NCBI GenBank assembly: GCA_964513485.1
Contig: CAZENJ010000007.1
Location: forward strand, 1 to 34,139
DNA: 34,139 nt
From: an uncultured Thermotogae bacterium
GTDB lineage: Bacteria; Bipolaricaulota; Bipolaricaulia; M55B111
Reading direction: 5' to 3'
Shown: positions 1,174 to 30,593 of the stretch, piece by piece
Layout of the letters: every line of letters starts with the position of its first letter
Numbering within the stretch: position 1 is the first letter of the stretch
Notes under the pieces: model-generated
Databases searched by the model: none
What the model was told of the DNA's origin: nothing
Seen by the model: the letters and a program-made list of their open reading frames with translations, nothing else
Made by a program: the position numbers and the translations under genes

Positions 1174-1203
1174 TCCAGCGCGAAAAGCAGCCGGCACAAT
1201 TAG

Positions 1204-2487: not shown

Positions 2488-2569
2488 GTGTCTTCAACAC
2501 CTCGGAAAATGTCGCCAGTCAAGAACCCCGCCCTCGGGATCGATGAAACGGACGGAAGTCGTTATTTGC

Positions 2570-3472: not shown

Positions 3473-3483
3473 GAGTTACCTCC

Positions 3484-5863: not shown

Positions 5864-6124
5864 TTTCCCTCCTTTCCGTAAGTTCTGCTTAATTAATACC
5901 TGATGGTTAAGTATAATAACGTATTTCCGAACTCTTGTCATCAGATCAGAAAGGGGATAGCTCTGCCCCCGACGATAACGAGGTGAAATTCTATTACCAA
6001 GATTAGCTGAGAACCCTCAGGGCTACCTCTGAGGTTGAATTTGCTGGTTTTTCGGTCGAGAAAAAACATTGGATTGGAGAGCACGTCCCGTTAATATTTG
6101 AGGGCAATAGAATTGGGGATAATT

Positions 6125-7219: not shown

Positions 7220-7370
7220 ATAGCCCAGATTTTGGGGAGCTAGCAAACAGGAAGATGAACTTTGTCCATTCAACTGGTGGCAATAATTGCCGGCTCGCTT
7301 TATCATAAGTTTCGAGCATCGCGTCGATCGCGGCACACCATAATAAAAGCTAAAAGTCGAGGTAGTTAAG

Positions 7371-8528: not shown

Positions 8529-8591
8529 CTTTAAATATACGGAAAGATAACTCTCAATGAAGCCAGAAAAAACCTAACAAGGGGGGGAAGC

Positions 8592-10427
8592 ATGGAAGGT
8601 TACTTCGGTCGCTATCTTGACGTTTCCCTGACGGAGGGAGAGATAACCGATTACGAGATTCCGCGCGAGTGGCTGGAAAAGTTTCTCGGCGGCAGGGGAA
8701 TCGGAGCGAGAATACTGTTCGAAGAGCTTGATTCCGGCGTGGATCCGCTTGGCCCCGAGAACATCGTGGTCTTTGCTACCGGACCGCTGCAGGGCCTGAA
8801 TATCGCGGGCGCCGGACGGCACGCGGTAATGGCCAAATCCCCGAAGACGAATTCCGTAAACGGTTCCTACGTCGGTGGTTTTTTCGGTCAGGAACTGGGT
8901 AAATCCGGTTACGACGGGTTGATTGTCAGGGGAGCCGCCGACTCGCCGAAATACCTGGTTCTTAAAGACGGTGAGGCGGAGATCAAGTCGGCCGATGATT
9001 ACTGGGGTCGGGATACCGCGGACTTCGAGGCAGAGATCAAGGAAACCGAAGGGGACGACGTCAGAGTCGCATCTATCGGGAAGGCCGGCGAGAACCTTGT
9101 CAATTTTGCCTGCATAATCCAGGACAGGAATAGAGCGGCCGGTAGGCCCGGTCTGGGCGCCGTGCTCGGAAGCAAAAAGCTAAAAGGTATTGCCGTGGCC
9201 GGCTCCGATAAGAAAGAGCTGGCGGATCCGGAAGAACTCGGGAGCCTCAGGGCCCAGTTTGCCCGGAAACTGGCGGAGACAAAAGGGGACTCGCTGGGAA
9301 AGTACGGCACCGGGAGAGGGGTAAACGGCTTGAACGAATCCGGAATACTGCCGACGAAAAATTTCCAGTCGGGCTATTTTCCCGAAGCGGAAGAGATAAG
9401 CGGCGAAAGGATGACGGAAACTATCCTGCAGGAACGGGACACCTGCAGTGGCTGCCCGATCAGGTGCAAGCGGGTGGTCGAGACGGAATTCGACGGCGAG
9501 AAGGTCAGACCGGAATACGGCGGACCCGAGTACGAGACGATTGCGGCGTTCGGTTCACTCTGTCTGAACTCGGATCTCGATGCCATTGCCCTGGCAAACC
9601 AGAAATGTAACAGGTACGGGCTGGATACCATTTCAACCGGTAATACTATTGCCTTTGCCATGGAAGCCAGTGAAAAAGGTCTCCTGGATGAAGAAGTAAA
9701 CTGGGGCGATCCCGGGGTAATTATCGAACTGGTCGAACGGATCGCCGGCCGGAAAGGACTGGGAAAGAAACTGGCGAAAGGGATAGCAAAGCTGAAGGAG
9801 GAGCTTGGCGCGGACTTCGCCGTTGAGATAAAGGGCCAGGAGGTCCCGATGCACGAGCCCCGGGGCAAAAAGGCTCTGGGTCTCAGCTATGCCACGACTC
9901 CAAGGGGTGCGAACCACATGGAAGGTGCCCATGATACCACCCTGGAGGAGGAACCTCTGGCCCCGGAAATCGGCGTTACCGAAACCATGGACAGGTACAG
10001 TTATCGGGGGAAAGCACGAGTGGCGAAGATATTCGAGGACCTCAGGTCTTTCAATAATTCGCTCGTTATGTGTGCCTTTACCACGGACATGGCGGGGGAA
10101 AATTACGCTTTCGGAACAATGAGGGATATCCTGGAATCCGTGACCGGAAGAAAGTTATCATCGGAGGAGATGCTGGAAATAGGTGAGAGAAACTACGTTT
10201 TGCTGAGGCTTCTGGCGGTAAGAGAAGGTTACTCCGCCGGAGAAGACGACCTGCCCCGGAGGTTAAAGGAGCCGCTTTCCGGGGGCGTCACCGAGGGCGA
10301 GGCCATACCTCAGGAAGAGTTCGACAAAATGCTATCTGATTATTACGAGGCAAGGGGTTATGGCGCGAACGGAGTACCGAAGGGGGAACTTCTGGAGAAG
10401 CTGGATTTGGCAAAACTGAAAGCGTGA
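8592..10427 (+). CDS. aor: Aldehyde:ferredoxin oxidoreductase, tungstopterin family
   Basis: 611 aa. N-terminal ...LDVSLTEGEI..YEIP..W...FLGGRGIGARIL, Fe-S/pterin ligand region ERDTCSGCPIRCKR, and EYETIAAFGSLC are hallmarks of the AOR family. G-rich RBS. Confidence 0.9.
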   Translation: MEGYFGRYLDVSLTEGEITDYEIPREWLEKFLGGRGIGARILFEELDSGVDPLGPENIVVFATGPLQGLNIAGAGRHAVMAKSPKTNSVNGSYVGGFFGQELGKSGYDGLIVRGAADSPKYLVLKDGEAEIKSADDYWGRDTADFEAEIKETEGDDVRVASIGKAGENLVNFACIIQDRNRAAGRPGLGAVLGSKKLKGIAVAGSDKKELADPEELGSLRAQFARKLAETKGDSLGKYGTGRGVNGLNESGILPTKNFQSGYFPEAEEISGERMTETILQERDTCSGCPIRCKRVVETEFDGEKVRPEYGGPEYETIAAFGSLCLNSDLDAIALANQKCNRYGLDTISTGNTIAFAMEASEKGLLDEEVNWGDPGVIIELVERIAGRKGLGKKLAKGIAKLKEELGADFAVEIKGQEVPMHEPRGKKALGLSYATTPRGANHMEGAHDTTLEEEPLAPEIGVTETMDRYSYRGKARVAKIFEDLRSFNNSLVMCAFTTDMAGENYAFGTMRDILESVTGRKLSSEEMLEIGERNYVLLRLLAVREGYSAGEDDLPRRLKEPLSGGVTEGEAIPQEEFDKMLSDYYEARGYGANGVPKGELLEKLDLAKLKA

Positions 10428-18087: not shown

Positions 18088-18228
18088 CGTTACGTTGTTA
18101 TCCTTTATTATACCAAAAGATTTCCCGGGAGAAAATTGGGTTTCAGTTGCTCGTTTGGCCGGCTATAATTAACGCCGGCGGGTTAACTGCGGACCCTTTC
18201 TTCCCCCCTTTACGGGAGGTGACTTGTC

Positions 18229-18576
18229 GTGATTGAGTCCTACTCTTTTGGCAGCATGGTCGTTGACGGTGAGAAGTACAGTGATGATCTTATGATCCAT
18301 GACGGAGAGGTCAAATCAGGCTGGGTCAGAGGGCGGGGACATCTGCTCCGGCCCGGAGACCTGACCTGGATCGTTGACAGGCAGCCGGATCTTCTGGTTG
18401 TCGGTACCGGGAGCAGCGGCAGGATGAGAATAGGCGATGGCGTCGGAAAATTTCTCGCCGATAAAGGTATTGACATCTGGTCCGGTAAGACAAAGAAGGC
18501 GGCGGACCACTTCAACGATGAACGGAAGGAGAGAGGCGAGGAAGAAGTCGCCGGAGCTTTTCACCTGACCTGTTGA
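18229..18576 (+). CDS. Mth938-like (DUF498) domain protein
   Basis: 115 aa. SYSFGSMVVDGEKYSDDLMI...LLVVGTGSSGRM pattern typical of the Mth938/NDUFAF3-like fold. GTG start preceded by GGGAGGTGA. Confidence 0.6.
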   Translation: MIESYSFGSMVVDGEKYSDDLMIHDGEVKSGWVRGRGHLLRPGDLTWIVDRQPDLLVVGTGSSGRMRIGDGVGKFLADKGIDIWSGKTKKAADHFNDERKERGEEEVAGAFHLTC

Positions 18577-18609
18577 CCGAAGCGGGTCGGCCGAATTCGG
18601 GAGTGAACA

Positions 18610-19866
18610 ATGGAAAATTTTACGGACTCGGGAGAGGAAAGACGCACCCTGGGCGAGCTGAAGGAGATAATCCAGCAGACCATTCGGGTTCGCCGGATGA
18701 CCCTGGGATTGTTCTCTGCTCTCGCTTTTTACTTCCGCTTCGGGGCGGGACTGAATTTCCCTCTCCCCCTCATCTTCTCCCCCATGATGTGGGGCGTAAT
18801 TACGGTGCCGTTCTCCAGGTTGATCAAAGCGCAGAAATCGAAGGAGGGGTTGAACAACGTCCACTTCGGTTACTTCGTCGTCGAAGTCGCGATTCTGACG
18901 TACCTGATTCATATCATCGGCGGAGTAGAGTGGATAGGGGTTGCCTACTACGTTTTTACCGTCCTCTATGCCAACTTCTTTCTTCCCAGGAGAAAGGCGT
19001 GGACGATTACATTTCTGGCTATCGCTTTTTTTGCCGGGATCAGTTACGCGGAGTATTTCGGGTTGATCTCCCACTGGTCGATATTTGAGAAAAACCCGGA
19101 GCTCTACCAGAACTCCTTTTACGTAACCACCACCATCCTGGCCGGCGGGTTCGGATTGTACGTTACCACAGCCTATACCGTCCAGATTTTCGCCCGGCTA
19201 TTCCGGGAAAAGAACGAGTCCCTCCGCGAGAGGGAGGCAAAATTACAGAAGCTCTGGAAGGAGTTGATCTCCGCCCGGGAGGAGGAGAGGAGTCGGATAT
19301 CCAAGCGGTTACACGACCAGCTGGGCCAGACACTGATGGGCGTGAAAATGAAGCTGGACATTCTGGACAAGGAGATCGACGATTCTCGCCTGGACGAGGT
19401 CAAACAGTTACTCGGAGAGGCGATCGACGAAAGCCGCGATCTTTCTCATTTGCTCCGACCTTCTTCGCTCGACGAGCTCGGTCTGGAGGCGGCACTGAGG
19501 GAGCTCGTTGATAATTTCGACTCCTCGACCGATATAGAGTTCAGCGCCTCCCTTAACCTCTCGCGGGAGATTGAAGAGGAAGAAAAGAAGGCGATAATTT
19601 ACCGGGCAATTCAGGAACTGCTGAATAACGCGGTCAAGCACGCGGACCCGGGAAAGGTCGAAGTAACTCTGGCGAACCGGGACTCGTTACTCGAGCTGAC
19701 AGTACTTGACGACGGGAAGGGTTTTGACCCGAACAGGGTGGTCAAGGAGTCCGGGCTGGGACTGAAAGGGATAAGAGAGAACATAAATATTGCCGGCGGC
19801 GATTTCGAAATCTTCTCCGAGGAGGGCGAAGGAACCAGAGCCGTTATCGAGCTTCCCCTGAATTAA
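18610..19866 (+). CDS. Sensor histidine kinase, HisKA_3/HATPase_c (NarL-partner class), with about 6 TM helices and no recognisable extracytoplasmic or PAS/HAMP domain
   Basis: H-box EERSRISKRLHDQLGQTL, N-box ELLNNAVKHA, G-boxes DDGKGF and GLGLKGIRE. The N-terminal 190 aa are almost entirely hydrophobic helices joined by very short loops. Confidence 0.85.
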   Translation: MENFTDSGEERRTLGELKEIIQQTIRVRRMTLGLFSALAFYFRFGAGLNFPLPLIFSPMMWGVITVPFSRLIKAQKSKEGLNNVHFGYFVVEVAILTYLIHIIGGVEWIGVAYYVFTVLYANFFLPRRKAWTITFLAIAFFAGISYAEYFGLISHWSIFEKNPELYQNSFYVTTTILAGGFGLYVTTAYTVQIFARLFREKNESLREREAKLQKLWKELISAREEERSRISKRLHDQLGQTLMGVKMKLDILDKEIDDSRLDEVKQLLGEAIDESRDLSHLLRPSSLDELGLEAALRELVDNFDSSTDIEFSASLNLSREIEEEEKKAIIYRAIQELLNNAVKHADPGKVEVTLANRDSLLELTVLDDGKGFDPNRVVKESGLGLKGIRENINIAGGDFEIFSEEGEGTRAVIELPLN

Positions 19867-19990
19867 TCTCCCCTCTTTACCAATCAATAGCTGAGAATGC
19901 CCCCGTCTTTGGCTCATTATTACAGAAAAATTAGTACAGGTAGCCCGTTTATCCTTTTGTGGAGTACATTAAACTATAGGTGATCTTGTT

Positions 19991-20737
19991 ATGATACTGT
20001 CTTTGAAACCAGAAGATCGCGGGACGAGTGGAACTTCAGGTTCGAAAGAAGAGCCGGAATCGACCGGCCCGGAGAAACGGGAGAAGCTGAAGATCGTCCT
20101 GGCTGACGACCACACCCTGGTCCGCCAGGGAATAGAGACGCTCCTGTCCGGAAAGGAAGCATACGAGATAGTCGGTCAGGCAGGGGATGGTTACGAGGCT
20201 CTGGAGCTGATCGAAGAGCACGAACCGGATATTGCGATTATCGATATTTCAATGCCCCGGCTCAACGGCCTGGAGGCGGCACGAAAGTTAAAGGACAAAG
20301 GAATGGATCTGGACGTTATATTTCTCTCGATGTACGACGACGAGGGCTACATCAGGCGGGCGATCAAGACCGGAGCGTCCGGTTACCTGTTGAAGGAGGA
20401 CGCAATAGACGAGCTGGAAGAAGCGATTGAGTCCGTGAGAAACGGATTTCACTACATGTCTCCGCCAATTCTTACTTCTCTCGTGGAGATGACGGAACGC
20501 GGTTTGAGCGCGATAGAGCCGGACGTACTGGATCGCCTGACCTCACGGGAGAGGGAGATACTTCAGTTAATCGCCGAGGGGAACTCCAATAAGGAGATCG
20601 CGGAACTGCTATCCCGCAGCGTGGAGACGGTTAGAACGCATCGGGCGAACCTGATGGAAAAACTGGACATACATTCGGCGGAGGAGATTCGGGAGTTTGC
20701 CCTGAAAGAAGGAATAATAAAGGATGAGGAGAAATGA
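19991..20737 (+). CDS. Response regulator, NarL/LuxR family (REC + LuxR-type HTH), with a roughly 33-aa low-complexity N-terminal extension
   Basis: KIVLADDHTLVRQG...DIAIIDISMPRLNG (REC). LTSREREILQLIAEGNSNKEIAELLSRSVETVRTHRANLMEKL (LuxR HTH). RBS AGGTGA 7 nt upstream of the ATG. Confidence 0.9.
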   Translation: MILSLKPEDRGTSGTSGSKEEPESTGPEKREKLKIVLADDHTLVRQGIETLLSGKEAYEIVGQAGDGYEALELIEEHEPDIAIIDISMPRLNGLEAARKLKDKGMDLDVIFLSMYDDEGYIRRAIKTGASGYLLKEDAIDELEEAIESVRNGFHYMSPPILTSLVEMTERGLSAIEPDVLDRLTSREREILQLIAEGNSNKEIAELLSRSVETVRTHRANLMEKLDIHSAEEIREFALKEGIIKDEEK

Positions 20738-21765
20738 GCCGAAACGAGAAAATTCCGTCCCGCCTTTCGGGATACAGGGGAGAGATTTCGGAGAAGCTCA
20801 GGGTTTACGTGGACGGACGGCAGGGAAAGCTGTACGAGATGGTGAATTACCATCTCGGTTTCGACGGCGAGGTGGCCGACCGGCGCCTCCAGGGCAAGGC
20901 GATAAGGCCCTGTCTCGTCCTCTTCACGACCGAGGCCCTGGGCGGCAACCCGGCTGAAGCAATGCCGGCCGCGATTTCCCTGGAGCTGATTCATAACTTT
21001 TCCCTGGTTCACGACGACATTCAGGACGACGCGGACACCAGACGCGGCAGGGAGAGCGTGCAGAAGAAGTGGAGCCCGGCCCAGGCGATAAATGCTGGCG
21101 ACGGCCTGAAGGATCTGTCGCTGCTGGCGCTGACCGAGCTCTCCGACGGGAATAGACCGGAGAGGGCACTAGAAGCCGTCTCGGCGCTGAGCGAATACTC
21201 CCTCCGGATGATTCAGGGCCAGGTACTGGACCTGCACTACATGGAGAGGGACGACATAGATATTCCCGGTTACCTGAAAATGATCCGGGACAAGACCTGT
21301 GCCCTACTCGAAGGCGCTTTCCACCTCGGAGGGATATACGGTGGAGCAGACGAGGCCGAGATAGACGGACTGATCGAGTTCGGCCGGCTGCTGGGTTACG
21401 TCTACCAGATCAGGGACGATTACCTGGGAATCTGGGGCCAGCCGGAGATGGCCGGTAAGTCCGTTCAGTCGGATCTCGTGGAAAAGAAGCGGTCGTTCCC
21501 CGTAGTTTACGCCATGCAGGAAGGTCGGGGGGATGAACTGGAAGAATTGAAGGATATATATTATCGGGAAGGCAAGTTAACCGAGGAAGAGGTAAATCGG
21601 GTGAGAAATATTCTCGAAGGAATGGGTGCCAGGGAAAAGACGGAGGAGTGGGCGGAAAAGTACTGGAAAGAAGCGGAAGAACAGTTGGGAAAAACGGATA
21701 TGGATGCTCGAGCCAGGGAAGATCTGAAAAAGTTCGGTTCCTTTTTGTTAAACAGGAAGAAATAG
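20734..21765 (+). CDS. Polyprenyl diphosphate synthase (short-chain trans-prenyltransferase, FPP/GGPP synthase type)
   Basis: First Asp-rich motif LVHDDIQDD...RRG, second YQIRDDYLG. The start ATG overlaps the regulator stop (ATGA). Confidence 0.85.
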   Translation: MSRNEKIPSRLSGYRGEISEKLRVYVDGRQGKLYEMVNYHLGFDGEVADRRLQGKAIRPCLVLFTTEALGGNPAEAMPAAISLELIHNFSLVHDDIQDDADTRRGRESVQKKWSPAQAINAGDGLKDLSLLALTELSDGNRPERALEAVSALSEYSLRMIQGQVLDLHYMERDDIDIPGYLKMIRDKTCALLEGAFHLGGIYGGADEAEIDGLIEFGRLLGYVYQIRDDYLGIWGQPEMAGKSVQSDLVEKKRSFPVVYAMQEGRGDELEELKDIYYREGKLTEEEVNRVRNILEGMGAREKTEEWAEKYWKEAEEQLGKTDMDARAREDLKKFGSFLLNRKK

Positions 21766-21776
21766 GAGGAATATAC

Positions 21777-22820
21777 ATGGGCAGACCGATGAAGATGAAC
21801 GCCAGGATAGCGAGTTACGCCGCCAAACAGGTGGCCAAAGGGAGGAGACGTTTCCCCCTGGTAACGATTATCGAGCCGCTGGAGCAGTGTAACCTGCGGT
21901 GTACCGGATGCGGAAGAATCAGGGAGTACTCGGAGGACATGGACGAGAGGATGTCGCCGGAAGAGGTTCTGGGTGCCGCGGAAGAGTCCGGTGCTCCCGT
22001 CATTTCGATTTCAGGGGGCGAGCCGCTGATACATCCACAGATAGAGACGATAGTAAAGAGTTTGATCGACGAAGGTTACTACATTTACCTCTGTACAAAC
22101 GGCCTGTTGCTCGAGGAGAAATTGAATACTTTCGAACCCTCGGAAAAACTGGCTTTTGCCGTCCACCTGGACGGGACGGAAGAAGTTCATGACAAGTTTA
22201 CCAACAGGGAAGGAGTTTATCAGACAGCCTTTTCGGCACTGGAAAAGGCGATAGATAGGGGGTTCCGGGTCACGACGAATACGACGATATTCAAGGAGAG
22301 CGACCCGGACGACCTGCACGAGCTATTCCACAGGTTGACCGACGCCGGGGTCGAAGGGATCATGCTGGCTCCCGGATACAACTACGCCTCCGTCGACAGG
22401 AGTGCGGAGGAGCATTTCCTGGCACGCAAGGAGTCGATCGAGGTGTTTCAGGAAATTCTGGATCCGGATAAGGTCGAGGACTTTCCCTTTTACAATACCC
22501 CGCTTTACCTGGATTTTCTCCGGGGAAAGAGGGAGCTGAACTGTACTGCCTGGGCTTCGCCGACTTACACCGTCCGGGGGTGGCGGAAACCGTGTTACGT
22601 CCTGGCCGACGAACACGTCGATTCGGTGGAGGAAATACTCGAGGAAGAACTGTGGGAGGAGTACGGAATCGGCAACGACCGGCGCTGTAATAGCTGTATG
22701 ATCCATTCCGGCTTCGATACCGCCGGGACGATAGATCAGCTGCGGAGCAGGGAAGGGATGGTGGACCTGGTAAAGAGCGCGGTGCCGAAGAAGTTCAAGG
22801 ATATGCTATCGACTTCGTAA
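21777..22820 (+). CDS. hpnH: Adenosyl-hopene transferase, radical SAM
   Basis: N-terminus ...ARIASYAAKQVAKGRRRFPLVTIIEPLEQCNLRCTGCGRI matches the HpnH pattern (CX3CX2C directly after a basic helix). AGGAGG RBS 7 nt upstream of ATG 21777. The longer ORF from 21648 overlaps the preceding gene and is rejected. Confidence 0.85.
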   Translation: MGRPMKMNARIASYAAKQVAKGRRRFPLVTIIEPLEQCNLRCTGCGRIREYSEDMDERMSPEEVLGAAEESGAPVISISGGEPLIHPQIETIVKSLIDEGYYIYLCTNGLLLEEKLNTFEPSEKLAFAVHLDGTEEVHDKFTNREGVYQTAFSALEKAIDRGFRVTTNTTIFKESDPDDLHELFHRLTDAGVEGIMLAPGYNYASVDRSAEEHFLARKESIEVFQEILDPDKVEDFPFYNTPLYLDFLRGKRELNCTAWASPTYTVRGWRKPCYVLADEHVDSVEEILEEELWEEYGIGNDRRCNSCMIHSGFDTAGTIDQLRSREGMVDLVKSAVPKKFKDMLSTS

Positions 22821-22826
22821 AGAAAG

Positions 22827-23513
22827 ATGTTGACCGTGCTGGCCGCGATGAAAGTCGAGCTGGAAGGACCGTTCGGGCTGGATAAGAGCTCCACTTACTG
22901 GGCGGAATGCGACCTGGTTTATACGGGGATCGGCAGAAAGAACGCTCTGGAGACGCTGGAAAATTTAAAAGGGGATCCTGAAATGGAAGGAATACTTTCC
23001 GTTGGGTTCGTCGGTTCGATAGACCCTGAAGTCAAGCCTGGTGACCTCTGTCTCGTGGATAGAGTACAGGCAAGCGATCGGAAGGATAGCTTTTTCTCCG
23101 ACCGGGACTGGCAGGATCGTGCCAGTAGTGCACTGGAGGATGATTACCGGACCTGTGGGCTGCTGACGGTAGAGGATACCGTTAGCGGGGTCGAGGAAAA
23201 GCGGTCGCTGATAAAGGTCAAGGGGGCTTCGATAGTCGATCAGGAGACTTACTGGGTTGCCAGAGCGGCTGACGAACGGGATCTCCCCTTTTTGAGTCTT
23301 CGCGTCGTCTCAGACGGGCTGGATCAGGAATTGCCGCCGAAGTCCTGTTACGACGGCGACTCCGGCCGAGTCCGGCCCGGGAAAGTTCTCGCCTGGCTGG
23401 CGAGGGAACCGGGGAGGTTTGTCGATCTGACCCGGCTAGGAGTAAATAGTTTTCGGGCCCGGAGACGGCTGGCCGGCGCGGTCAACAGCGTGGTTCCCGC
23501 CCTTATGAGCTGA
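22827..23513 (+). CDS. hpnG: Hopanoid-associated phosphorylase/nucleosidase (PNP/UDP family)
   Basis: 228 aa. GIGRKNA, SVGFVGSIDPEVKPGDL and SLRVVSD blocks typical of the PNP_UDP_1 fold. Sits between hpnH and hpnA. Sequence alone cannot exclude an MTA/futalosine nucleosidase. Confidence 0.7.
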   Translation: MLTVLAAMKVELEGPFGLDKSSTYWAECDLVYTGIGRKNALETLENLKGDPEMEGILSVGFVGSIDPEVKPGDLCLVDRVQASDRKDSFFSDRDWQDRASSALEDDYRTCGLLTVEDTVSGVEEKRSLIKVKGASIVDQETYWVARAADERDLPFLSLRVVSDGLDQELPPKSCYDGDSGRVRPGKVLAWLAREPGRFVDLTRLGVNSFRARRRLAGAVNSVVPALMS

Positions 23514-23518
23514 TTCGG

Positions 23519-24520
23519 ATGAAATATCTGGTAACTGGAGCAAACGGTTTTGTCGGAAGCAATTTGGTTAAAGTGCTGCTCGAATCCGGCCACGACGTGC
23601 GGGGACTTATCAGGGAAAGCAGCAATACCGTCAACCTGGAGGGACTGGAGGTAGAAACCGTGATCGGGGATATCCGGAAGCCGAAAGAGCTGGAAGAAGC
23701 CGTCAGCGGCGTGGACGGAGTGTTTCACACTGCCGCGCTGTACAGCTTCTGGGCCCCCGACTACGAGATCTTCTACGAGACGAACGTTGACGGGACGGAA
23801 AACGTGTTGAGAGCAGCGGAAGAGGCCGGCGTGGAGCGGCTGGTATTTACCAGTACGGCGTCTTTGCTCGCCCATTCCGATGATAAACGGAGTCTACCGG
23901 ACTCGCCGGACGATCTGCCGAGCGATTATAAAATATCGAAGTACTTTGCCGAACGAACGGCACTCGACTTCGGCTCGGAGAGCGCTATGGACGTCCTGGT
24001 GGCGAGCCCGACCGTTCCTATCGGTCCGGGAGATTACGGTCCGACGCCGACGGGCCGGCTGATTCTGGAGTTTCTCAACGGCAGGATGAAAGGGTTCGTC
24101 GATATGGACTTCAACCTGGTCGACGTCGAAGACGTCGCCGAGGGGCATCTGATCGTCATGGAGGACGGAGAACCGGGAGAACGCTACGTGCTGGGAAACA
24201 GAAACACCAGCCTCTCCGAGGTGATCGATCTGCTGGCGCAGTTCACGGGATTGCCGAAACCGCTGTTCCGGATTCCCTATCCCCTGGCGCTGGGTGCCGC
24301 CTGGGTGGACGAGTTCCTGGAGGGGTTTTTGTTGAACAGCCGTCCGTCTATTCCCATCTCCGCGATCGAGTCGACGCGAGTGGACGAGAGGATAGATCCC
24401 ACTCCCTGGGTTGAGGACCTGGGTTTGCCGAAGACGCCGCTGGCCACAGCCCTGAAGAAATCGATCGACTGGTTCGTCAGGAACGGTTACGTAAAAAATG
24501 AAGGAGCTCTGAGAAGATGA
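23519..24520 (+). CDS. hpnA: Hopanoid-associated NAD-dependent sugar epimerase/reductase (SDR, extended)
   Basis: MKYLVTGANGFVGSNLV Rossmann motif and YxxxK (YKISKYF). About 330 aa. Operon context with hpnG/hpnH. Confidence 0.7.
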   Translation: MKYLVTGANGFVGSNLVKVLLESGHDVRGLIRESSNTVNLEGLEVETVIGDIRKPKELEEAVSGVDGVFHTAALYSFWAPDYEIFYETNVDGTENVLRAAEEAGVERLVFTSTASLLAHSDDKRSLPDSPDDLPSDYKISKYFAERTALDFGSESAMDVLVASPTVPIGPGDYGPTPTGRLILEFLNGRMKGFVDMDFNLVDVEDVAEGHLIVMEDGEPGERYVLGNRNTSLSEVIDLLAQFTGLPKPLFRIPYPLALGAAWVDEFLEGFLLNSRPSIPISAIESTRVDERIDPTPWVEDLGLPKTPLATALKKSIDWFVRNGYVKNEGALRR

Positions 24521-25581
24521 ACGGGACGAGAGTTGTCGACGTCGGCGGGGTAAAGATAGGGGGCGACAACCCCGTCGTAGTCCAGTCCATGACCAATACG
24601 GCGACGGAAGACGTCGAGCGGACGCTGCGCCAGGTTCGTGGATTGGTCGAACGAGGCTGTGAGCTCGTCCGGGTTGCAATTCCGGACAGCGCGGCCGGAG
24701 AGGCTCTACCGGAAATAGTGAAGAATAGCCCGGTGCCGATAATTGCCGATATCCACTATTCTCCCGAACTGGCCTTTATGGCTCTGGAGGCGGGAGTGGA
24801 TAAGCTCAGGCTGAACCCCGGAAACATCACGGAGGAAGAAGCCATCGGGGATATCGCGAAAGAAGCGAGGGCCCGGGCGATACCGATACGGGTTGGAGTC
24901 AATTCCGGCTCTCTTGACCGGGAAATCGTCGAAGAGTTCGGCAGGACCGCAGAAGCGATGGTCGTGAGCGCGGAGAGGGAGATAGCCCTGCTGAAAAGGG
25001 AGGGCTTCGAGGACATAGTCGTCTCGTTAAAGTCGAGCGAGGTCAATACGACGATCGAAGCCAACGAAATATTCTCCGAGCGCTACGACTACCCGCTGCA
25101 CCTCGGGGTGACGGAGGCCGGGGGAGGGCGAAGCGGCCTGGTCAAGTCCTCGATCGGTATCGGGGCGCTGCTCCAGCGGGGGATCGGGGATACTATAAGG
25201 GTCTCGCTGACGGCCGACCCCCGGGAGGAAGTCGCTGCGGCGTACGACATTCTCAGATCCCTTGGTTTGCGGGATAGAGGTATGGACCTTGTCTCCTGCC
25301 CCACCTGTGGACGAACGCAGGTCGAGGTTGAAGAAATAGGCCGACAGCTGGAGGAGAGGCTGGGCGACCTCGAAGATCCCGTCAGAGTAGCCCTAATGGG
25401 CTGTTCGGTTAACGGAATCGGGGAAGCCGGTTCGTCGGATATCGGGGTGGTCGGAACGGCACGGGGCGGAGTCCTTTACGTAAACGGCGAGCAGGAGGAG
25501 TTGATATCCGCTGCCACTACGGAGGCCGTCGTCGACCGGCTGGAGAGCCGGATCAGGAATTATTTGAAAAACGGGGAGTAA
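24517..25581 (+). CDS. ispG: 4-hydroxy-3-methylbut-2-en-1-yl diphosphate synthase (MEP pathway)
   Basis: GGDNPVVVQSMTNT, RVAIPD, LRLNPGN, RVGVNSGSL, Fe-S cysteines SCPTCGRT and MGCSVNGIGE. The start overlaps the hpnA stop (ATGA). Confidence 0.95.
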   Translation: MNGTRVVDVGGVKIGGDNPVVVQSMTNTATEDVERTLRQVRGLVERGCELVRVAIPDSAAGEALPEIVKNSPVPIIADIHYSPELAFMALEAGVDKLRLNPGNITEEEAIGDIAKEARARAIPIRVGVNSGSLDREIVEEFGRTAEAMVVSAEREIALLKREGFEDIVVSLKSSEVNTTIEANEIFSERYDYPLHLGVTEAGGGRSGLVKSSIGIGALLQRGIGDTIRVSLTADPREEVAAAYDILRSLGLRDRGMDLVSCPTCGRTQVEVEEIGRQLEERLGDLEDPVRVALMGCSVNGIGEAGSSDIGVVGTARGGVLYVNGEQEELISAATTEAVVDRLESRIRNYLKNGE

Positions 25582-25585
25582 GCTT

Positions 25586-26437
25586 ATGGAAATCGTAAAA
25601 GCCGATCTATTTGGTTTCTGTTTTGGCGTCAGGCGCGCCGTGGATATCGTCGAGGAAAAGCTGGAAGAGCGGGAAAAGATCGACACGCTCGGCCCGATAG
25701 TTCATAACCCCAACGTGGTTGAGGACCTTTCCGAGAAGGGGGCGGAAGTCGTTAATTCCCTCGACAACGTGGACACGGATTCAGTCATCATTACCGCCCA
25801 CGGTGCCGGCCGAGACATTCACGAGGAGATAGAATCCAAGGGCCTTAACTTGATCGATACTACCTGTCCGATCGTAAAGAAGGCCCAGGAAACCGCCGAG
25901 GACCTCGTACATAAGGGTTATCAGGTAGTGATCTACGGCGAAAACGACCATACGGAGGTCAGAAACATTCTTGGCTGGCTCGACGGGAAGGGAGTGGCGA
26001 TTCTGGATCCGGCCAAGGAGATACCGATAGAGGAAGGTCGAGTCGCGCTGCTGTCGCAGACCACGAAGGGCAAGAAGTATTTCTTTGATTTCGCGGGGGA
26101 GTTCCTCCGGGAGAACAAGGATAAGCTGGAGGACGTCAAGATCGTCGACACGACCTGCGGGGAAACCAGGCGCAGGTACGAAGCGGCCGAGAGGCTGGCG
26201 GAGCAGGTCGACCTGATTCTGGTTGTCGGGGGAAAGAACTCGGCAAACACCCGCAAGCTCGCGGAAGTGGCGGGAAATACGGGAATAGAGACGCACCACA
26301 TAAAGGACGAATCGGAGATAGAACCGACCTGGGTTGAGGGAGTGGAGAGAGTGGGTATAACTGCAGGCGCCTCCACGCCTCAATCCGCGGTATCGTCGGT
26401 GGAGGAAACGTTAATGGAGTTGAACAAATCATCGTAA
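25586..26437 (+). CDS. ispH: 4-hydroxy-3-methylbut-2-enyl diphosphate reductase (MEP pathway)
   Basis: GFCFGVRRAV, GPIVHNP, ITAHG, DTTCPIV, SQTT, DTTCGET, VVGGKNSANT and GITAGASTP blocks are classic IspH/LytB. Confidence 0.95.
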   Translation: MEIVKADLFGFCFGVRRAVDIVEEKLEEREKIDTLGPIVHNPNVVEDLSEKGAEVVNSLDNVDTDSVIITAHGAGRDIHEEIESKGLNLIDTTCPIVKKAQETAEDLVHKGYQVVIYGENDHTEVRNILGWLDGKGVAILDPAKEIPIEEGRVALLSQTTKGKKYFFDFAGEFLRENKDKLEDVKIVDTTCGETRRRYEAAERLAEQVDLILVVGGKNSANTRKLAEVAGNTGIETHHIKDESEIEPTWVEGVERVGITAGASTPQSAVSSVEETLMELNKSS

Positions 26438-26455: not shown

Positions 26456-26905
26456 ATGTTGACCTCAACGTCTACTGAAATATTGAAGGTGCAGACAACA
26501 AAGGCCCCGGAATTCATCGATATCACGGACGAGGTAACTCAGTTTGTCGAAGACAGGGAGGTCGAATCGGGCGCGCTGGTGATTTTCAGTCGTCACACCA
26601 CGGCGGCGATCCGGATAAACGAAAACGAATCCCTGTTGAAAAAGGACATGGCGGACTTTCTCCAGAAGGTCGCGCCGTCGGAGGACTACTATCGCCACAA
26701 CGACTTCTCGATTCGGACCGAAAACATGACCCCGAACGAGGTGCCGAACGGACACGCGCACTGTCAGTCCCTCGGCCTCGGGGCCAGCGAAACGGTACCG
26801 ATCATCGAGAGCGAGCTGAAGCTGGGGAAATGGCAGAGGGTATTTTTGATCGAGCTGGATCATTCGAGAGAAAGGGAGGTTATCCTTCAGGTTCTCGGTG
26901 GCTGA
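26456..26905 (+). CDS. yjbQ: YjbQ/UPF0047 family protein (annotated elsewhere as secondary thiamine-phosphate synthase)
   Basis: 149 aa. SRHTTAAIRINENE and NGHAHCQS motifs with C-terminal GxWQ.V.L.ELD, typical of UPF0047. RBS AAAGGAGG. Confidence 0.85.
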   Translation: MLTSTSTEILKVQTTKAPEFIDITDEVTQFVEDREVESGALVIFSRHTTAAIRINENESLLKKDMADFLQKVAPSEDYYRHNDFSIRTENMTPNEVPNGHAHCQSLGLGASETVPIIESELKLGKWQRVFLIELDHSREREVILQVLGG

Positions 26906-26963: not shown

Positions 26964-27872
26964 ATGGTTAAGTTAAAAGAAGTGAGTCCGGAATTATATC
27001 GGCAGGAGTTTTCGCTGGATTCGGCCTACGAGCTCTGTCGGGAGATAGGGACCGAACACTACGAGAACTTCACCGTGGTCAGTCGGATGACCCCCGCTGA
27101 CAAGCGGAAGTATATTTACGCCCTCTATGCCTATAGCCGATACACTGACGATCTGGGAGACGAGCTGGAGGACGGTAACCTGGAGGCCCTCGATCTCTGG
27201 CAGGAGGAGCTGGAGGCCGCCTTCCGGGGGAAGGAGCCGGAAAACCCGATACTGCTCGCCCTGAGAGATACGGCGACCCGGCACTCGCTCTCCGAGAAAC
27301 CATTCAAGAAATTGATCGAGGCGAACCGGATGGACCAGCGACAGAAGTCGTACCGGACTTACGAGGATCTGCTGGAATACTGTGACCACTCGGCGAACCC
27401 GGTGGGGAGGATTTTTCTCGCCATTTTCGGCTACGGCGACGAGAAGCGTCGGGAGCTTTCCGATAAAACGTGTACCGGGCTCCAGTTGACCAATTTCTGG
27501 CAGGACGTCGATCGGGACGAAAAGATGGGCCGGGTCTACATCCCGGAAGAGGATATGGAGCGGTTTAATTACTCGAGAGACCTGCTTGAGGACAGGATAT
27601 ACAACGAGGACTTCGTCGAGCTGATGAAGTTCGAGGTGGAGCGGGCCCGGAACTTGCTGCAGGAGGGGCTGGAACTTGTACCTCTGCTGGATAATCGGTT
27701 AAAGATGGACGTGCGCCTGTTCAATCAGGGCGGTTTGCGGATCCTGGATAAGATCGAGGAAGAGGATTACAACGTCCTGCACAAGAGGCCGACCCTGTCC
27801 GGCGGAGAAAAGGTCTGGTTGTTTTTTTCGAATCTGGTAAAGCGTCCCGTCCGGAGGTTCGTCGATGGCTGA
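26964..27872 (+). CDS. hpnC: Hydroxysqualene synthase (squalene/phytoene synthase fold)
   Basis: YENFTVVS..., YAYSRYTDDLGDE (first Asp-rich motif), NFWQDVDRD (second). First of two tandem SQS/PSY paralogues followed by an FAD oxidase, the hpnC-hpnD-hpnE order. Confidence 0.8.
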   Translation: MVKLKEVSPELYRQEFSLDSAYELCREIGTEHYENFTVVSRMTPADKRKYIYALYAYSRYTDDLGDELEDGNLEALDLWQEELEAAFRGKEPENPILLALRDTATRHSLSEKPFKKLIEANRMDQRQKSYRTYEDLLEYCDHSANPVGRIFLAIFGYGDEKRRELSDKTCTGLQLTNFWQDVDRDEKMGRVYIPEEDMERFNYSRDLLEDRIYNEDFVELMKFEVERARNLLQEGLELVPLLDNRLKMDVRLFNQGGLRILDKIEEEDYNVLHKRPTLSGGEKVWLFFSNLVKRPVRRFVDG

Positions 27873-28743
27873 AAGACCTGAGGGGGTTGTAAAAGAGGAT
27901 GAGAGCCCGAGTCAGTACTGTAAAAGAATTACGAAAGAGCGGGCAAAGAACTTTTACTGGGCAATTGTAACTCTGCCCCGGGAGAAGCGTTCGGCGGTAT
28001 ACTCGATCTATACGTTCGCCCGGCGCTGTGACGATATCGCCGATAGTTCCTGGGAACTCGAGAAAAAGCAGGCTCATCTGAGCCGGGAGAGGGAAAAGCT
28101 GGAGGACCTCTACGCGGGAAAGCCCGACGGGAAACTTTACGAAGCCCTGGGGGAAACCGTCGACGAGTACGGGATCCCGCGCACTTACTTCGACCAGCTA
28201 ATTCGGGGTGTCGAGATGGACCTGACCAGGGACCGTTATGCTACCTTCAAGGACCTCAAAGTCTACTGTTTTCGAGTCGCTTCGGTCGTCGGACTGGCGC
28301 TGATCGAAATATTTGGTTACTCCGACGACGAGGCCAAGAAGTACGCGATTGATTTCGGTCTCGGGATGCAGCTGACGAATATCATCCGGGACGTGGCAGA
28401 GGATTACGAACGGGGAAGGATCTACATCCCGGAGGAGGAGCGGGATAAGTTCGGCTGTGATTTTTCCGAGGTGGATTCTAACGGGATAACGGAGGAGTTC
28501 CGGGAACTGATGGACTACGAGGCCTCGCGGGCCCGGGAGTATTTCGAAAGGGGCAAGCAGCTTTTCACGTACCTTTCGCCGAGAACTCGTGCCTGTCCGG
28601 CCGGACTCTACGGTGTTTACAGCAACTTGCTCCGAAAGATGGAAAAGTCCGGCTGGGACGTCTGGGACGAGAGGACAAGTCTGAGTACGGTAAAGAAGGT
28701 TAGTTCAGTACTGGGTCAATGGTTCGTCAGCCTGAATCGATAG
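27865..28743 (+). CDS. hpnD: Presqualene diphosphate synthase (squalene/phytoene synthase fold)
   Basis: NFYWAIVTLPREKRSAVYSIYTFARRCDDIAD and LTNIIRDVAEDYERGRIYIP. Overlaps the hpnC stop (ATGGCTGA). Confidence 0.8.
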   Translation: MAERPEGVVKEDESPSQYCKRITKERAKNFYWAIVTLPREKRSAVYSIYTFARRCDDIADSSWELEKKQAHLSREREKLEDLYAGKPDGKLYEALGETVDEYGIPRTYFDQLIRGVEMDLTRDRYATFKDLKVYCFRVASVVGLALIEIFGYSDDEAKKYAIDFGLGMQLTNIIRDVAEDYERGRIYIPEEERDKFGCDFSEVDSNGITEEFRELMDYEASRAREYFERGKQLFTYLSPRTRACPAGLYGVYSNLLRKMEKSGWDVWDERTSLSTVKKVSSVLGQWFVSLNR

Positions 28744-30053
28744 TAATTATCGGCGGTGGCCTTGCCGGGCTAGCCGCCGGGACACGGATACTTGCCGGAG
28801 GTTACGACGGGAAATTAATCCTGCTGGAAAAATCGCCGACGCTCGGTGGCCGGACGGGCTCGATAGACTACCGCGGCAAGAAGCTCGACCTGGGACAGCA
28901 CATGCACGTCTCCGGCTTCGACTTCTATCGGAAGTTCATCACGCAAATCGGCCTGGACGATAAACTGCGGACGCAGTCCCGCCTGGACGTGGAGTTCAGG
29001 GATAACGACGGGTTGACCGGCAGAGTCGAGAGCAACGGGTTGCCGCCACCCTTTCACCTTCTTTCCGCCCTTTACAGGTTTCCCTTTATTACTCTTCCCG
29101 ACAAGTTAAGGCTGGCGGGACCGATGATTCCGGCCCTGCTCTTTGATTACGAGGATAATTCGAGAGACCTCTCGTTCGGTGAATGGCTAAGAAAAAAGGG
29201 GGCGAGCGAGAGGTCGATCGATAAACTCTGGAACCAGATCATCGTCCCCACGTTGAACGCTCCGGTTGACGAAGTCAGCCTTCGGATGGGCATGATGATC
29301 CTCAAGCGCGTCCTGCTCGACAGGCAGGGCGGTCGGCTGGGCAGGTTGGATGCCCCGATGGGGACGATCGGCGAGGCGGCGGCCAGTTTCATCGCAGACC
29401 GGGGAGGCGAGGTGAGGACCGCCAGCCCGGTCGAGGAAATTCGCCTCGAGGCAGAGGGCGAGCACCTGGTCCGGCTCGCCGACGGCTCGACCGTGAAAGC
29501 CGGGGCAGTACTTTCGGCCGTTCCCGGCCACGGTCTGAAGAACCTGCTGTCCGATTCCGCCCTGGAGCGGTTTTCCCGGCCCTTCTGGCGTCTCGACTGG
29601 AACTCGATCGTAAATATCCACATGATGTTCGCGGAAAGCGTGATGGAGGAGGAGTTTTTCGGTTACCTGGAAGGAACTGCCGGCTGGGTTTTTAACGTGA
29701 GTTATAACGGGGAAGGAGCGGGAAAACACATTTGTCTGACCGTTTCCGATCCCGGCGAACTAGAGGAGATGGAGCCGGAAGAACTGGTGGAGCGGGTCCG
29801 GCGGGATCTCGCTTCGCCGCTGCCGGAGATCGCCTCGGCCTCGCTGAAGGATTCCGTCGTCCTCTACCAGCCCAGGGCGACGTTCAAGGTTTCGCCCGGC
29901 AGTGCTTCCCTGCGGCCGCCGCAGAATCCCGTTCACGAGAGGTTCTTTCTTGCCGGCGACTGGACGGATACCGGCTGGCCTTCGACCATGGAAGGAGCTA
30001 CCCGGAGCGGTTACCGCGCCGCGGCAGAGGTGCTGGACAGCATCTCGGACTGA
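28719..30053 (+). CDS. hpnE: Hydroxysqualene dehydroxylase (FAD-dependent amine-oxidase fold)
   Basis: IVIIGGGLAGLAAG dinucleotide-binding motif and C-terminal FLAGDWTDTGWPSTMEGATRSG. Overlaps the hpnD end by 25 nt. Confidence 0.8.
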   Translation: MVRQPESIVIIGGGLAGLAAGTRILAGGYDGKLILLEKSPTLGGRTGSIDYRGKKLDLGQHMHVSGFDFYRKFITQIGLDDKLRTQSRLDVEFRDNDGLTGRVESNGLPPPFHLLSALYRFPFITLPDKLRLAGPMIPALLFDYEDNSRDLSFGEWLRKKGASERSIDKLWNQIIVPTLNAPVDEVSLRMGMMILKRVLLDRQGGRLGRLDAPMGTIGEAAASFIADRGGEVRTASPVEEIRLEAEGEHLVRLADGSTVKAGAVLSAVPGHGLKNLLSDSALERFSRPFWRLDWNSIVNIHMMFAESVMEEEFFGYLEGTAGWVFNVSYNGEGAGKHICLTVSDPGELEEMEPEELVERVRRDLASPLPEIASASLKDSVVLYQPRATFKVSPGSASLRPPQNPVHERFFLAGDWTDTGWPSTMEGATRSGYRAAAEVLDSISD

Positions 30054-30104: not shown

Positions 30105-30593
30105 GTGTTTACCTTGAAACAGTTTCATAACCCAACTAAAGGCAGATTGACTTTTGAAGGAGTCGTCGACGAGATAGTCGGCATGATGGAAAAGGACCAG
30201 CGGTCGGAGTTCGAAGTGGTCGTCGGTACCGATTCCCATGCCTCGTCGGGCGATCACGAGATAGACTTCGTCAGCGCGATAGTGATTCACCGTGTGGGCA
30301 AGGGTGGCCGGTACTTCTGGAAGCGGGAGACGGAGGAAGGGATCTACACGCTGAGGGACAAGATTTACAAGGAAGCCTTCCTTTCGTTCGACCTGGGCAA
30401 GGAACTTATGCAGCGGCTGGAAGAAGTTACGTTGCTCGATTACAACCTGGAAATTCACGTGGACGTCGGTCAGAGAGGAAAGACAAAAGAAATTATCGAC
30501 GAAGTCGTCGGCATGATTATCGGTAGCGGCTTCGACGTCAGGACCAAGCCCGATTCTTACGGGGCGTCGACCGTGGCGGACAAGTACGCCTGA
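30105..30593 (+). CDS. DUF458 / YkuK-like RNase H-fold protein
   Basis: 162 aa. VVVGTDSH...IDFVSAIVIHRVGKGGRYFW...LEIHVDVG pattern matches the YkuK family as I remember it. GTG start. 51 nt after hpnE. Confidence 0.55.
   Translation: MFTLKQFHNPTKGRLTFEGVVDEIVGMMEKDQRSEFEVVVGTDSHASSGDHEIDFVSAIVIHRVGKGGRYFWKRETEEGIYTLRDKIYKEAFLSFDLGKELMQRLEEVTLLDYNLEIHVDVGQRGKTKEIIDEVVGMIIGSGFDVRTKPDSYGASTVADKYA

Follow-up and report, generated by a model that had tools for sequence, protein, structure and literature searches.

Gene content and organisation of the locus

The DNA analysed in this work is a stretch of 34,139 nucleotides (nt) from a Bipolaricaulota (Acetothermia) bacterium (contig CAZENJ010000007.1), which is referred to as the window at its full length. 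It carries a two-component system, made up of a sensor histidine kinase and a NarL/LuxR response regulator, next to genes for isoprenoid, squalene, and hopanoid synthesis (the hpn operon). The gene map of the window was constructed from Pfam and NCBIfam scans of the open reading frames (ORFs) on the + strand. The genes and candidate control regions of the locus are as follows.

18139-18169, + strand: candidate promoter P1 of the DUF498 and kinase genes, conserved in 15 close-clade loci
18229-18576, + strand: DUF498/Mth938-like gene, 115 amino acids (aa) (Pfam PF04430, E = 6.6e-17)
18610-19866, + strand: sensor histidine kinase, 418 aa (HisKA_3 and HATPase_c)
19900-19990, + strand: conserved non-coding block in the kinase-regulator spacer, candidate promoter P2 and operator (from conservation)
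19991-20737, + strand: NarL/LuxR response regulator (orthologue of RR2, described below), first cistron of the hpn operon (Response_reg and GerE)
20734-21765, + strand: polyprenyl diphosphate synthase (PPS) (PF00348, E = 7.7e-61)
21777-22820, + strand: hpnH (TIGR03470 equivalog, 403 bits, cut-off 225)
22827-23513, + strand: hpnG-like phosphorylase (PNP_UDP_1)
23519-24520, + strand: hpnA-like epimerase (epimerase domain)
24517-25581, + strand: ispG
25586-26437, + strand: ispH
26456-26905, + strand: yjbQ/UPF0047
26964-27872, + strand: hpnC (SQS_PSY)
27865-28743, + strand: hpnD (SQS_PSY)
28719-30053, + strand: hpnE (amine-oxidase gene)
30105-30593, + strand: PF04308 RNaseH-like gene, 51 nt past hpnE

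The regulator stop codon and the PPS start codon share ATGA (20734-20737). The junctions from PPS/hpnH to hpnE/PF04308 are, in order, +11, +6, +5, -4, +4, +18, +58, -8, -25, and +51 nt, where the start of hpnH is probably ATG 21777 and not the GTG at 21648 that opens the longest ORF. HpnH, the squalene route (HpnC, HpnD, and HpnE), and HpnG/HpnA are all present in the hpn cluster. The PF04308 gene is the last + strand gene ahead of the convergent genes and occupies the same position with 90% identity in the related locus L085. It may mark the end of the operon. The window has no desaturase gene, and the neighbouring target of the two-component system is the isoprenoid/hopanoid operon.

A preliminary description of this DNA had reported the NarL/LuxR partner at 19991-20737, the ATGA overlap of the regulator with PPS, and overlaps or gaps of no more than 60 nt through hpnE. 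The Response_reg and GerE domains with D39, D40, and D85, the checked coordinates, and the junctions of -25 to +58 nt agree with all three. The Mth938-like gene that it had placed 34 nt upstream of the kinase is present, with a gap of 33 nt instead of 34.

Conservation of the arrangement in Bipolaricaulota

Full-length kinase homologues were identified in Bipolaricaulota/Acetothermia only, with identities from 99% down to 39%, followed by a sharp score drop to proteins matching in the C-terminal half. A scan of one genome per species yielded 73 loci with a full-length kinase homologue (loci are numbered with the prefix L), to which the window proteins were mapped by tblastn, and 58 of these loci have enough downstream DNA to be informative. 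The same-strand order of kinase, regulator(s), PPS, and hpnH is exhibited by 53 of the 58 informative species-level genomes, with kinase identity from 87% to 33%. Where the downstream DNA suffices, the order continues with (hpnG), ispG, ispH, yjbQ, hpnC, and hpnD. The PPS start lies -14 to +23 nt from the regulator stop in 51 of the 53, and 27 have the identical 4-nt overlap. Ahead of the kinase, the window clade has DUF498/HPP/MFS and other clades have DUF3467/DUF401; DUF498 in this position is restricted to the window clade (L001-L017 and L085). Since these genes differ among clades, general synteny has decayed, while the block from the kinase onward has been retained.

The reverse test started from HpnH-seeded loci on JGI metagenome contigs. 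The pair was found in the Bipolaricaulota-type operons (L085, L086, L087, L089, and L091), and none of the approximately 70 hpn clusters of other phyla in this set has such a pair. The proposal of the preliminary description that the pair is hard-wired to expression of the hopanoid/squalene and MEP pathways, together with its suggestion to check the synteny of kinase, regulator, prenyl synthase, and hpn genes in related genomes, is therefore borne out by phylum-wide synteny (53/58) that is specific to Bipolaricaulota in the reverse test.

Several loci are exceptions to the common arrangement. L083/L084 have the operon without the pair and with an extracytoplasmic function (ECF) sigma gene divergent upstream. 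In L032, the operon sits upstream of the pair. L057, L044, L063, L026, L058, and L072 have the kinase and regulator without downstream hpn genes. Strain J31 (L165 9862-13834, CM133397.1) has an inverted hpn operon that diverges from the kinase and its two regulators. J31, an isolate (bioRxiv 10.1101/2025.11.21.689855), is the only cultured Bipolaricaulota, and the sole mention of the cluster with the response regulator in that preprint is a figure legend that calls it a 'terpenoid' gene cluster. An IS110 transposase directly follows the second regulator gene (RR2) of J31, which starts 8 nt past the first (RR1), and the usual promoter block is absent there. Many metagenome-assembled genomes with the locus (L001, L004, L007-L009, L021, L026, L064, and others) are labelled 'uncultured Thermotogae', Neomarinimicrobiota, or Fraserbacteria, and such labels are probably taxonomic mislabels or binning errors.

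Response regulators RR1 and RR2

The majority layout in the phylum is kinase-RR1-RR2-PPS, where RR1 overlaps the kinase stop and RR2 starts about 50 nt past RR1 and abuts PPS. The window-clade regulators (L001-L017) fall inside the RR2 group in the neighbour-joining tree. The layout and the tree indicate that the ancestral system had two paralogous regulators, of which the window clade kept RR2 alone and lost RR1. Compared with the rest of the phylum, the window clade has lost RR1, gained DUF498, hpnA, and hpnE, and lost the squalene-hopene cyclase gene (shc) from the operon.

The window regulator matches Response_reg with 99.4 bits and GerE with 64.5 bits and has the features of the NarL/FixJ (LuxR-type) family. 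The acidic pocket and phospho-Asp (D39, D40, and D85) are kept in all aligned copies of RR1 and RR2. The recognition helix of RR2 reads RSVETVRTHRANLMEKL in the window and RSlhTVRnHrA..MRKLG in distant clades, and that of RR1 differs from it and reads ISxKTVExH.

The window regulator also has a Ser/Gly/Glu-rich, low-complexity N-terminal extension of 33 residues (19991-20089) ahead of the receiver domain. This extension and a linker insertion of about 20 residues are found in the window clade only, and the sequence of the extension varies among close relatives. The lone RR2-type regulator of L018 (10051-10689) has YN in place of the DD pocket (MAIRVFVYNPFT...) and retains the phospho-Asp. It could be a degenerate receiver.

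Candidate promoters and the conserved element

The candidate promoter P1 has a -35-like sequence within GGTTTCAGTT (18139-18148), a 17-nt spacer, and a -10 sequence TATAAT (18164-18169). The pattern GGTTTYAGTT-N15-TATAATT upstream of DUF498 is kept in the 15 close-clade loci with flanks that cannot be aligned, and this conserved pair is read as a candidate promoter for DUF498 and the kinase.

The kinase-regulator spacer is 124 nt long, and a block of about 90 nt in it is conserved across 17 close-clade genomes. The elements of this block in the window are as follows.

19909-19917, + strand: upstream repeat TTGGCTCAT
19931-19938, + strand: Box A, TTAGTACA
19944-19954, + strand: Box B, CCCGTT(TATCC)
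19963-19969, + strand: AGTACAT
19970-19975, + strand: -10-like sequence TAAACT
19978-19983, + strand: Shine-Dalgarno (SD) sequence AGGTGA

The phylum-wide Box A is (T/A)T(A/G)(G/A)T(A/G)C(A/G) and Box B is CCC(C/T/G)AT, with CCGTTT in the window clade. The two boxes are separated by N4, but by N5-6 in the window clade, and Box B is followed by a -10-like TAnnnT after 22-23 nt, but after 19-20 nt in the window clade. The distance from the -10 to the RR2 start codon is 6-10 nt in distant clades and 15 nt, with AGGTGA, in the window clade. Such short spacing in distant clades would suit a leaderless mRNA and speaks for a genuine promoter. Box A-N4-6-Box B with a -10 lies upstream of RR2 (or PPS) in 50 of 57 regions by pattern, and the other seven show visible variants. 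A strict form of the pattern has 59 matches in 989 kb (both strands), and 44 of these lie in the short stretch bounded by the kinase end and the PPS start. After shuffling, the whole 989-kb set has about 23 matches. From its spacing, the 18-bp element would lie at about -52 to -35, where activator sites overlapping the -35 region are typically found.

The element tracks the operon and not the regulator gene through rearrangements. In J31 it lies upstream of PPS, in the 139-nt region between the divergent operon and kinase-RR1-RR2, and in L018 it lies in the 130-nt gap between the regulator and PPS. The operons that have no pair upstream, L083/L084 and L032, lack it. L083 (3063-3158) and L032 (about 150-265) share another conserved upstream block, ATTCAACG...GAATTCACCC...CCCGATCCAnTAGCC...TGCAAGACT. 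This block may represent another way of controlling the same operon. In the close relatives L002 (4473-4544) and L017 (11258-11379), the spacer is enlarged by inserts of 70-120 nt that lie upstream of the block around the element and leave it intact.

An RNA element in the spacer was considered and set aside. The spacer block has neither an Rfam match nor a consensus RNA structure, and it was therefore treated as a DNA signal. The short motif AGTWCAW was also set aside as uninformative (16 occurrences in the window against 8 expected). A simple sigma-70 scan gave nothing convincing in either intergenic region, and both P1 and P2 rest on conservation. The kinase-regulator spacer has no terminator-like site on the + strand, so read-through from the kinase past the spacer is possible. 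The preliminary description had presented the two-component system as translationally coupled to the operon. The coupling of the regulator to PPS and the tight packing of the genes stand, but the conserved promoter-like block with its operator-like element intervenes between kinase and regulator, and the unit from the kinase to hpnE is probably not one transcript.

Architecture of the sensor kinase

Pfam identified HisKA_3 at residues 226-287 of the kinase (44.5 bits, cut-off 24) and HATPase_c at residues 329-417 (60.5 bits, cut-off 26.4). Residues 1-205 have no Pfam domain, and no periplasmic, PAS, or HAMP domain was identified there. The scores above the Pfam cut-offs and the presence of the H-box, N, G1, and G2 boxes assign the protein to the HisKA_3 class; 16 orthologues from across the family all have H235-D236-x-x-G239-Q240, N340, D367xGxG371, and G382LG384. 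Hydropathy and two AlphaFold models (pLDDT 76 and 80) predict six transmembrane (TM) helices at residues 30-45, 53-74, 78-103, 106-124, 127-149, and 169-198, with both termini cytoplasmic and an N-terminal cytoplasmic helix at about 14-29. The TM loops have 2-7 residues, and the sole larger loop has about 18 residues (150-168). In the models, TM6 is continuous as a single helix (169-255) through a coiled coil to H235 of the H-box. Apart from the 18-residue loop, hydropathy, Pfam, and AlphaFold thus reproduce the earlier picture of about six packed TM helices with very short loops, without periplasmic, PAS, or HAMP domains, running through a coiled coil into HisKA_3.

The TM-region residues that are invariant in the 16 orthologues include H85, E92, H101, G105, W108, Y120, N122-F-F-L125, T134, E148, H155, Y171, and T175. 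By the predicted topology, H101, W108, E148, H155, Y171, and T175 are toward the outer face, and H85, N122, and T134 are toward the inner face. The mean pairwise identity is 53% for the TM domain, 56% for the dimerisation and histidine phosphotransfer (DHp) domain, and 44% for the ATP-binding (CA) domain. Judged from their conservation, the invariant intramembrane His, Glu, Asn, and Trp residues seem better suited to recognising a specific ligand or ion than to gauging thickness alone.

The closest solved structures are VraS and DesK for the catalytic core and VraR, DesR, and NarL for the regulator. The cytoplasmic core matches DesKC by phmmer (E = 3e-8, residues 202-416) and many DesKC entries by Foldseek (E ~1e-9). 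The best match of the ATP-binding domain is VraS (E = 2.3e-11), and that of the regulator is VraR (E = 4.6e-36).

Family of the six-TM domain

A profile of the TM region was searched against 1.84 billion representative proteins and matched 601 proteins at E <= 0.001. Among 58 longer hits, the six-TM module is fused to HisKA in 23, to GGDEF in 14, and to HisKA_3 in only four. Other fused outputs are PAS, GAF, class III (adenylate) cyclase, and HD-GYP-type (HD_5) domains. The motifs HxxGGxxWIG and LEYxGxIPH are retained even in remote homologues. The Pfam family 6TM_PilS (PF25323) is matched by 12 of the 58 remote homologues (best E = 2.5e-11) and, below threshold, by six of 14 orthologues (best E = 2.4e-4); the TM domain of the window gives no match at E <= 10. 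The window kinase has the PilS-like architecture of six N-terminal TM helices with short loops. From these matches, its TM domain belongs to a widespread modular six-TM family and, via a transitive link only, appears to be a distant relative of PilS.

Many proteins with a length near 285 aa (P0127-P0265) form a large family built from the six-TM module and a long coiled coil with repeated ARTxELE and a C-terminal GRELKMVELKKEI. This module-only family has no recognised output domain and is named in neither Pfam nor NCBIfam.

The TM domain of ActS/PrrB/RegB binds an isoprenoid quinone, and the heptapeptide of its quinone site, GGxxNPF, lies in the TM3-TM4 loop. The whole window kinase scores 45.5 bits with the ActS/PrrB/RegB model NF033792 (cut-off 350), and the TM part alone is matched weakly in three of 14 orthologues (best E = 0.003). 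Identity with ActS/PrrB/RegB was rejected on the family cut-off and on the TM3-TM4 loop, which reads GGVEWIG and not GGxxNPF. When the TM domain was compared with PDB structures by fold, no match reached E <= 0.001. The top folds below significance came from ImcA, a membrane diguanylate cyclase (probability 0.75, TM-score 0.44), and from the six-TM domains of membrane adenylyl cyclases, which can serve as a lead only.

Squalene-hopene cyclase and other genes

Neither the 34-kb window nor the 10-kb flanks in 17 close relatives contain shc. In every operon of the more distant Bipolaricaulota, the gene is placed between ispG and ispH (e.g. L022 10292-12238 and L080 6001-7932). The ispG/ispH gap of the window is 4 nt (25581/25586), and shc is cleanly missing from it. 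The window clade, which lacks shc in the operon, retains HpnH and HpnG, whose steps follow that of the cyclase. L080 represents an intermediate lineage that has both hpnA and shc. The list of shc homologues is filled by cyclases of similar identity from many phyla.

The yjbQ/UPF0047 gene is constant between ispH and hpnC across the phylum, and the database protein P0383 (886 aa) is a squalene-hopene cyclase fused to a UPF0047 domain. These observations are hints that the UPF0047 family of 'unknown function' may have a role in the pathway.

The part of the window upstream of the locus (223-4527 and 6098-10427) carries histidine-utilisation genes (urocanase fragment, amidohydrolase, and formiminotransferase) and a tungsten-type aldehyde:ferredoxin oxidoreductase that adjoins a radical SAM/SPASM gene. 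These genes are unrelated to the system described here.

Proposed mechanism and alternative explanations

The gene content, the topology, the phylum-wide linkage, and the conservation of the cis-element with its co-occurrence with the system were observed directly. Taken as sequence evidence, they make a regulatory link between the pair and the hopanoid/isoprenoid genes well supported. A dedicated link is supported because the adjacency and coupling are deep, because adjacency is kept after rearrangement, because an operator-like element co-occurs with the system, and because the RR2 paralogue, which has a conserved recognition helix of its own, is always tied to the operon. The proposal also draws on the TM domain being conserved to the same degree as the DHp, with invariant polar residues, and on the class of the closest solved relatives (VraS/DesK and VraR/DesR/NarL), which belong to systems for the envelope or the state of the membrane. 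For a dedicated regulator of hopanoid synthesis, the pair is the strongest candidate to date. We lean towards the reading that it is a Bipolaricaulota-specific two-component system dedicated to the isoprenoid/squalene/hopanoid operon, acting via Box A/Box B at P2.

In the proposed mechanism, the loop-less six-helix domain of the kinase would read a cue in or at the membrane, and the signal would travel down the continuous TM6/coiled-coil helix into the HisKA_3 core (H235). The kinase would then set the phosphorylation of the NarL-type regulator (D85), whose gene is the first cistron of the operon and appears to be translationally coupled to PPS. The phosphorylated regulator would most likely bind the 18-bp Box A/Box B, centred about 43 bp upstream of the predicted transcription start. 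Activation of P2 by the regulator would amount to positive autoregulation and would switch on the regulator, PPS, hpnHGA, ispGH, yjbQ, and hpnCDE jointly. The kinase and DUF498 would be expressed from the separate, constitutive-looking P1, possibly with read-through into the spacer. What we infer in this model is which protein binds the element, whether it activates or represses, and what the kinase senses.

Several points weigh against this model. The element could be used by an alternative sigma factor or another protein. RR1, and not RR2, may be the primary partner of the kinase, because the kinase occurs with RR1 alone and without hpn genes in L057, L044, L063, and L026. The negative controls for the co-occurrence of element and pair amount to only two independent operons. 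The window region matched DNA metagenome runs and no RNA run, so that the promoter positions and operon limits are inferred from conservation. At the 15-nt distance from the -10 to the ATG in the window, a transcription start 7 nt past the -10 would cut the SD-like AGGTGA. Hopanoid as the final product of the window organism is unproven, because its clade has no shc in the operon or flanks.

In a rival explanation, the pair and the operon would be neighbours only. The pair would then be a general envelope-stress system (LiaSR/VraSR-like) or have other targets, the regulator would ride on the hpn transcript, and the element would serve another factor such as an alternative sigma factor. Kinase-RR1 without nearby hpn genes in L057, L044, and L063 is consistent with this explanation, as are the one Bipolaricaulia operon that lacks the pair and is preceded by a divergent ECF sigma gene, and the broad regulons of the closest solved relatives, VraSR and LiaSR. 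However, the gene order is kept in 53/58 at 33-45% protein identity while the flanks have decayed, the pair is still adjacent after the inversion in J31, and the element co-occurs with the pair, with another upstream block where the pair is missing. We regard this explanation as quite unlikely.

The remaining alternatives concern the signal, and the candidate signals are ranked as product or intermediate feedback, then a physico-chemical cue at the outer face, then bilayer order. In the case of feedback, the six-TM domain would bind hopanoid, squalene, or polyprenyl phosphate and tune the operon as PilS senses PilA. This account is unlikely in our estimate, yet it draws on the transitive homology to 6TM_PilS (12/58 remote homologues, and 6/14 orthologues below threshold), on the weak ActS/PrrB/RegB match (3/14, E = 0.003), on the position of the sensor beside the lipid operon throughout the history of the phylum, and on the direct interaction of the six TM segments of PilS with PilA for autoregulation that is described in PMC6058289. 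It is weakened by the window protein scoring under the family cut-offs of both the PilS and RegB models, and by the occurrence of the same TM module with many outputs in lineages that need not make hopanoids. A narrower form, in which the six-TM domain is the direct receptor of membrane hopanoid (or squalene) content in a closed feedback loop on the operon, is speculative and is given a low probability. If true, it would be a bacterial counterpart of the sterol-sensing control of sterol synthesis and would provide the first ligand for a six-TM module that is fused to kinases and to diguanylate and adenylate cyclases in many phyla.

The kinase might instead sense external pH, a metal ion, or osmotic stress via an outer-face His/Glu cluster, with hopanoids as the stress defence. 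The invariant H101, W108, E148, H155, Y171, and T175 at the outer ends of TM3-TM6 and in the only sizeable outer loop would suit such a sensor, and HxxGGxxWIG and LEYxGxIPH are kept in remote homologues. In other bacteria, tolerance of pH and stress has been linked to hopanoids, according to works cited in PMC9426598, and genes for osmotic and cation homeostasis are enriched among hopanoid producers (PMC12324291). The residue positions, however, come from predicted topology only, and the TM domain matched no known metal or pH sensor family in Pfam, NCBIfam, and the PDB fold search. We regard an outer cue as improbable.

The preliminary description had called the kinase DesK-like. In B. subtilis, DesK (multi-TM, HisKA_3) and DesR (NarL family) sense membrane thickness or fluidity and control a lipid desaturase, and hopanoids are membrane-ordering lipids. 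The kinase would accordingly be a sensor of bilayer thickness, order, or fluidity (a thermosensor), with hopanoid synthesis as the homeostatic output instead of desaturation. The likeness holds for the loop-less multi-TM sensor, for TM6 being continuous with DHp without HAMP, for the HisKA_3 core and NarL regulator that have DesK/DesR among their top solved matches, and for output lipids that order membranes. It fails for the sensor module. The kinase has six TM helices against the five of DesK, no TM homology could be shown, the TM domain falls in a PilS-related modular family, and the invariant buried or interfacial charged residues H85, E92, H101, E148, and H155 are unexpected for a ruler of hydrophobic mismatch. 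The identity as a DesK-type sensor was rejected, as six TM helices with both ends cytoplasmic are set apart by the known helix number and topology of DesK. Bilayer thickness, order, or fluidity as the signal would be an analogy and is rather unlikely in our estimate. The DesK analogy fits the transmission of the signal (TM helix-DHp continuity, HisKA_3, and NarL partner) and not the sensor module.

A dedicated, phylum-wide pair with a defined candidate operator makes the signal for hopanoid control directly addressable by experiment, and the cultured host J31 carries the same system in a divergent arrangement. The locus also provides the first functional context for a large uncharacterised family of six-TM sensor modules.

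Comparison with known systems

Reported controls of hopanoid synthesis are general stress sigma factors or broad regulons. In the literature searched, no hopanoid operon with a built-in two-component system is described, in line with the preliminary description, which was aware of no such system dedicated to hopanoid synthesis. A comparative study of hopanoid genes from 2025 does not mention Bipolaricaulota or such a system (PMC12324291). One of the closest known systems is BesRS of Burkholderia thailandensis, whose envelope-disturbance regulon includes a putative hopanoid operon (PMC9426598). BesRS is a two-component system reported to influence hopanoid genes, as is proposed for the pair in this work, and a repeat has been suggested at the 5' end of its putative hopanoid operon (PMC9426598). 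However, BesRS is encoded elsewhere and has a broad regulon (beta-lactamase, efflux, and catabolism), whereas the pair in this work is built into the operon phylum-wide.

LiaSR and VraSR of Firmicutes provide the best matches of the ATP-binding domain and the regulator, and share sensing of the intramembrane type and autoregulated operons, the latter as proposed here. LiaS and VraS differ in having two TM helices and HAMP and in needing LiaF and VraT, while the kinase in this work has six TM helices and no such partner.

PilS-PilR of Pseudomonas aeruginosa shares the six-TM, short-loop sensor, with a distant sequence relation via PF25323. PilS senses PilA via its six TM segments for autoregulation (PMC6058289, citing Kilmury and Burrows 2016), which sets a precedent for a kinase that monitors the membrane-resident product of its own target genes. 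PilS, however, combines PAS and HisKA with a sigma-54 activator, whereas the system in this work combines HisKA_3 with a NarL-type regulator. No pilin genes are found near the window pair, and the window protein itself has no PF25323 score.

DesK-DesR shares a HisKA_3 kinase with a multi-TM sensor that has no extracytoplasmic, HAMP, or PAS domain, a last TM helix that is continuous with the coiled coil and DHp, and an output in membrane-lipid biosynthesis. DesK has five TM helices with the N-terminus outside and motifs of its own in TM1 and TM5, whereas six TM helices with the N-terminus inside are predicted here, in a PilS-related modular TM domain with invariant polar residues. The target in this work is a 12-gene isoprenoid/hopanoid operon with the regulator as its first cistron, and the ancestral form of the system has two regulators. 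Overall, the pair is a HisKA_3/NarL system with a PilS-like six-TM sensor that is probably dedicated to a hopanoid operon.

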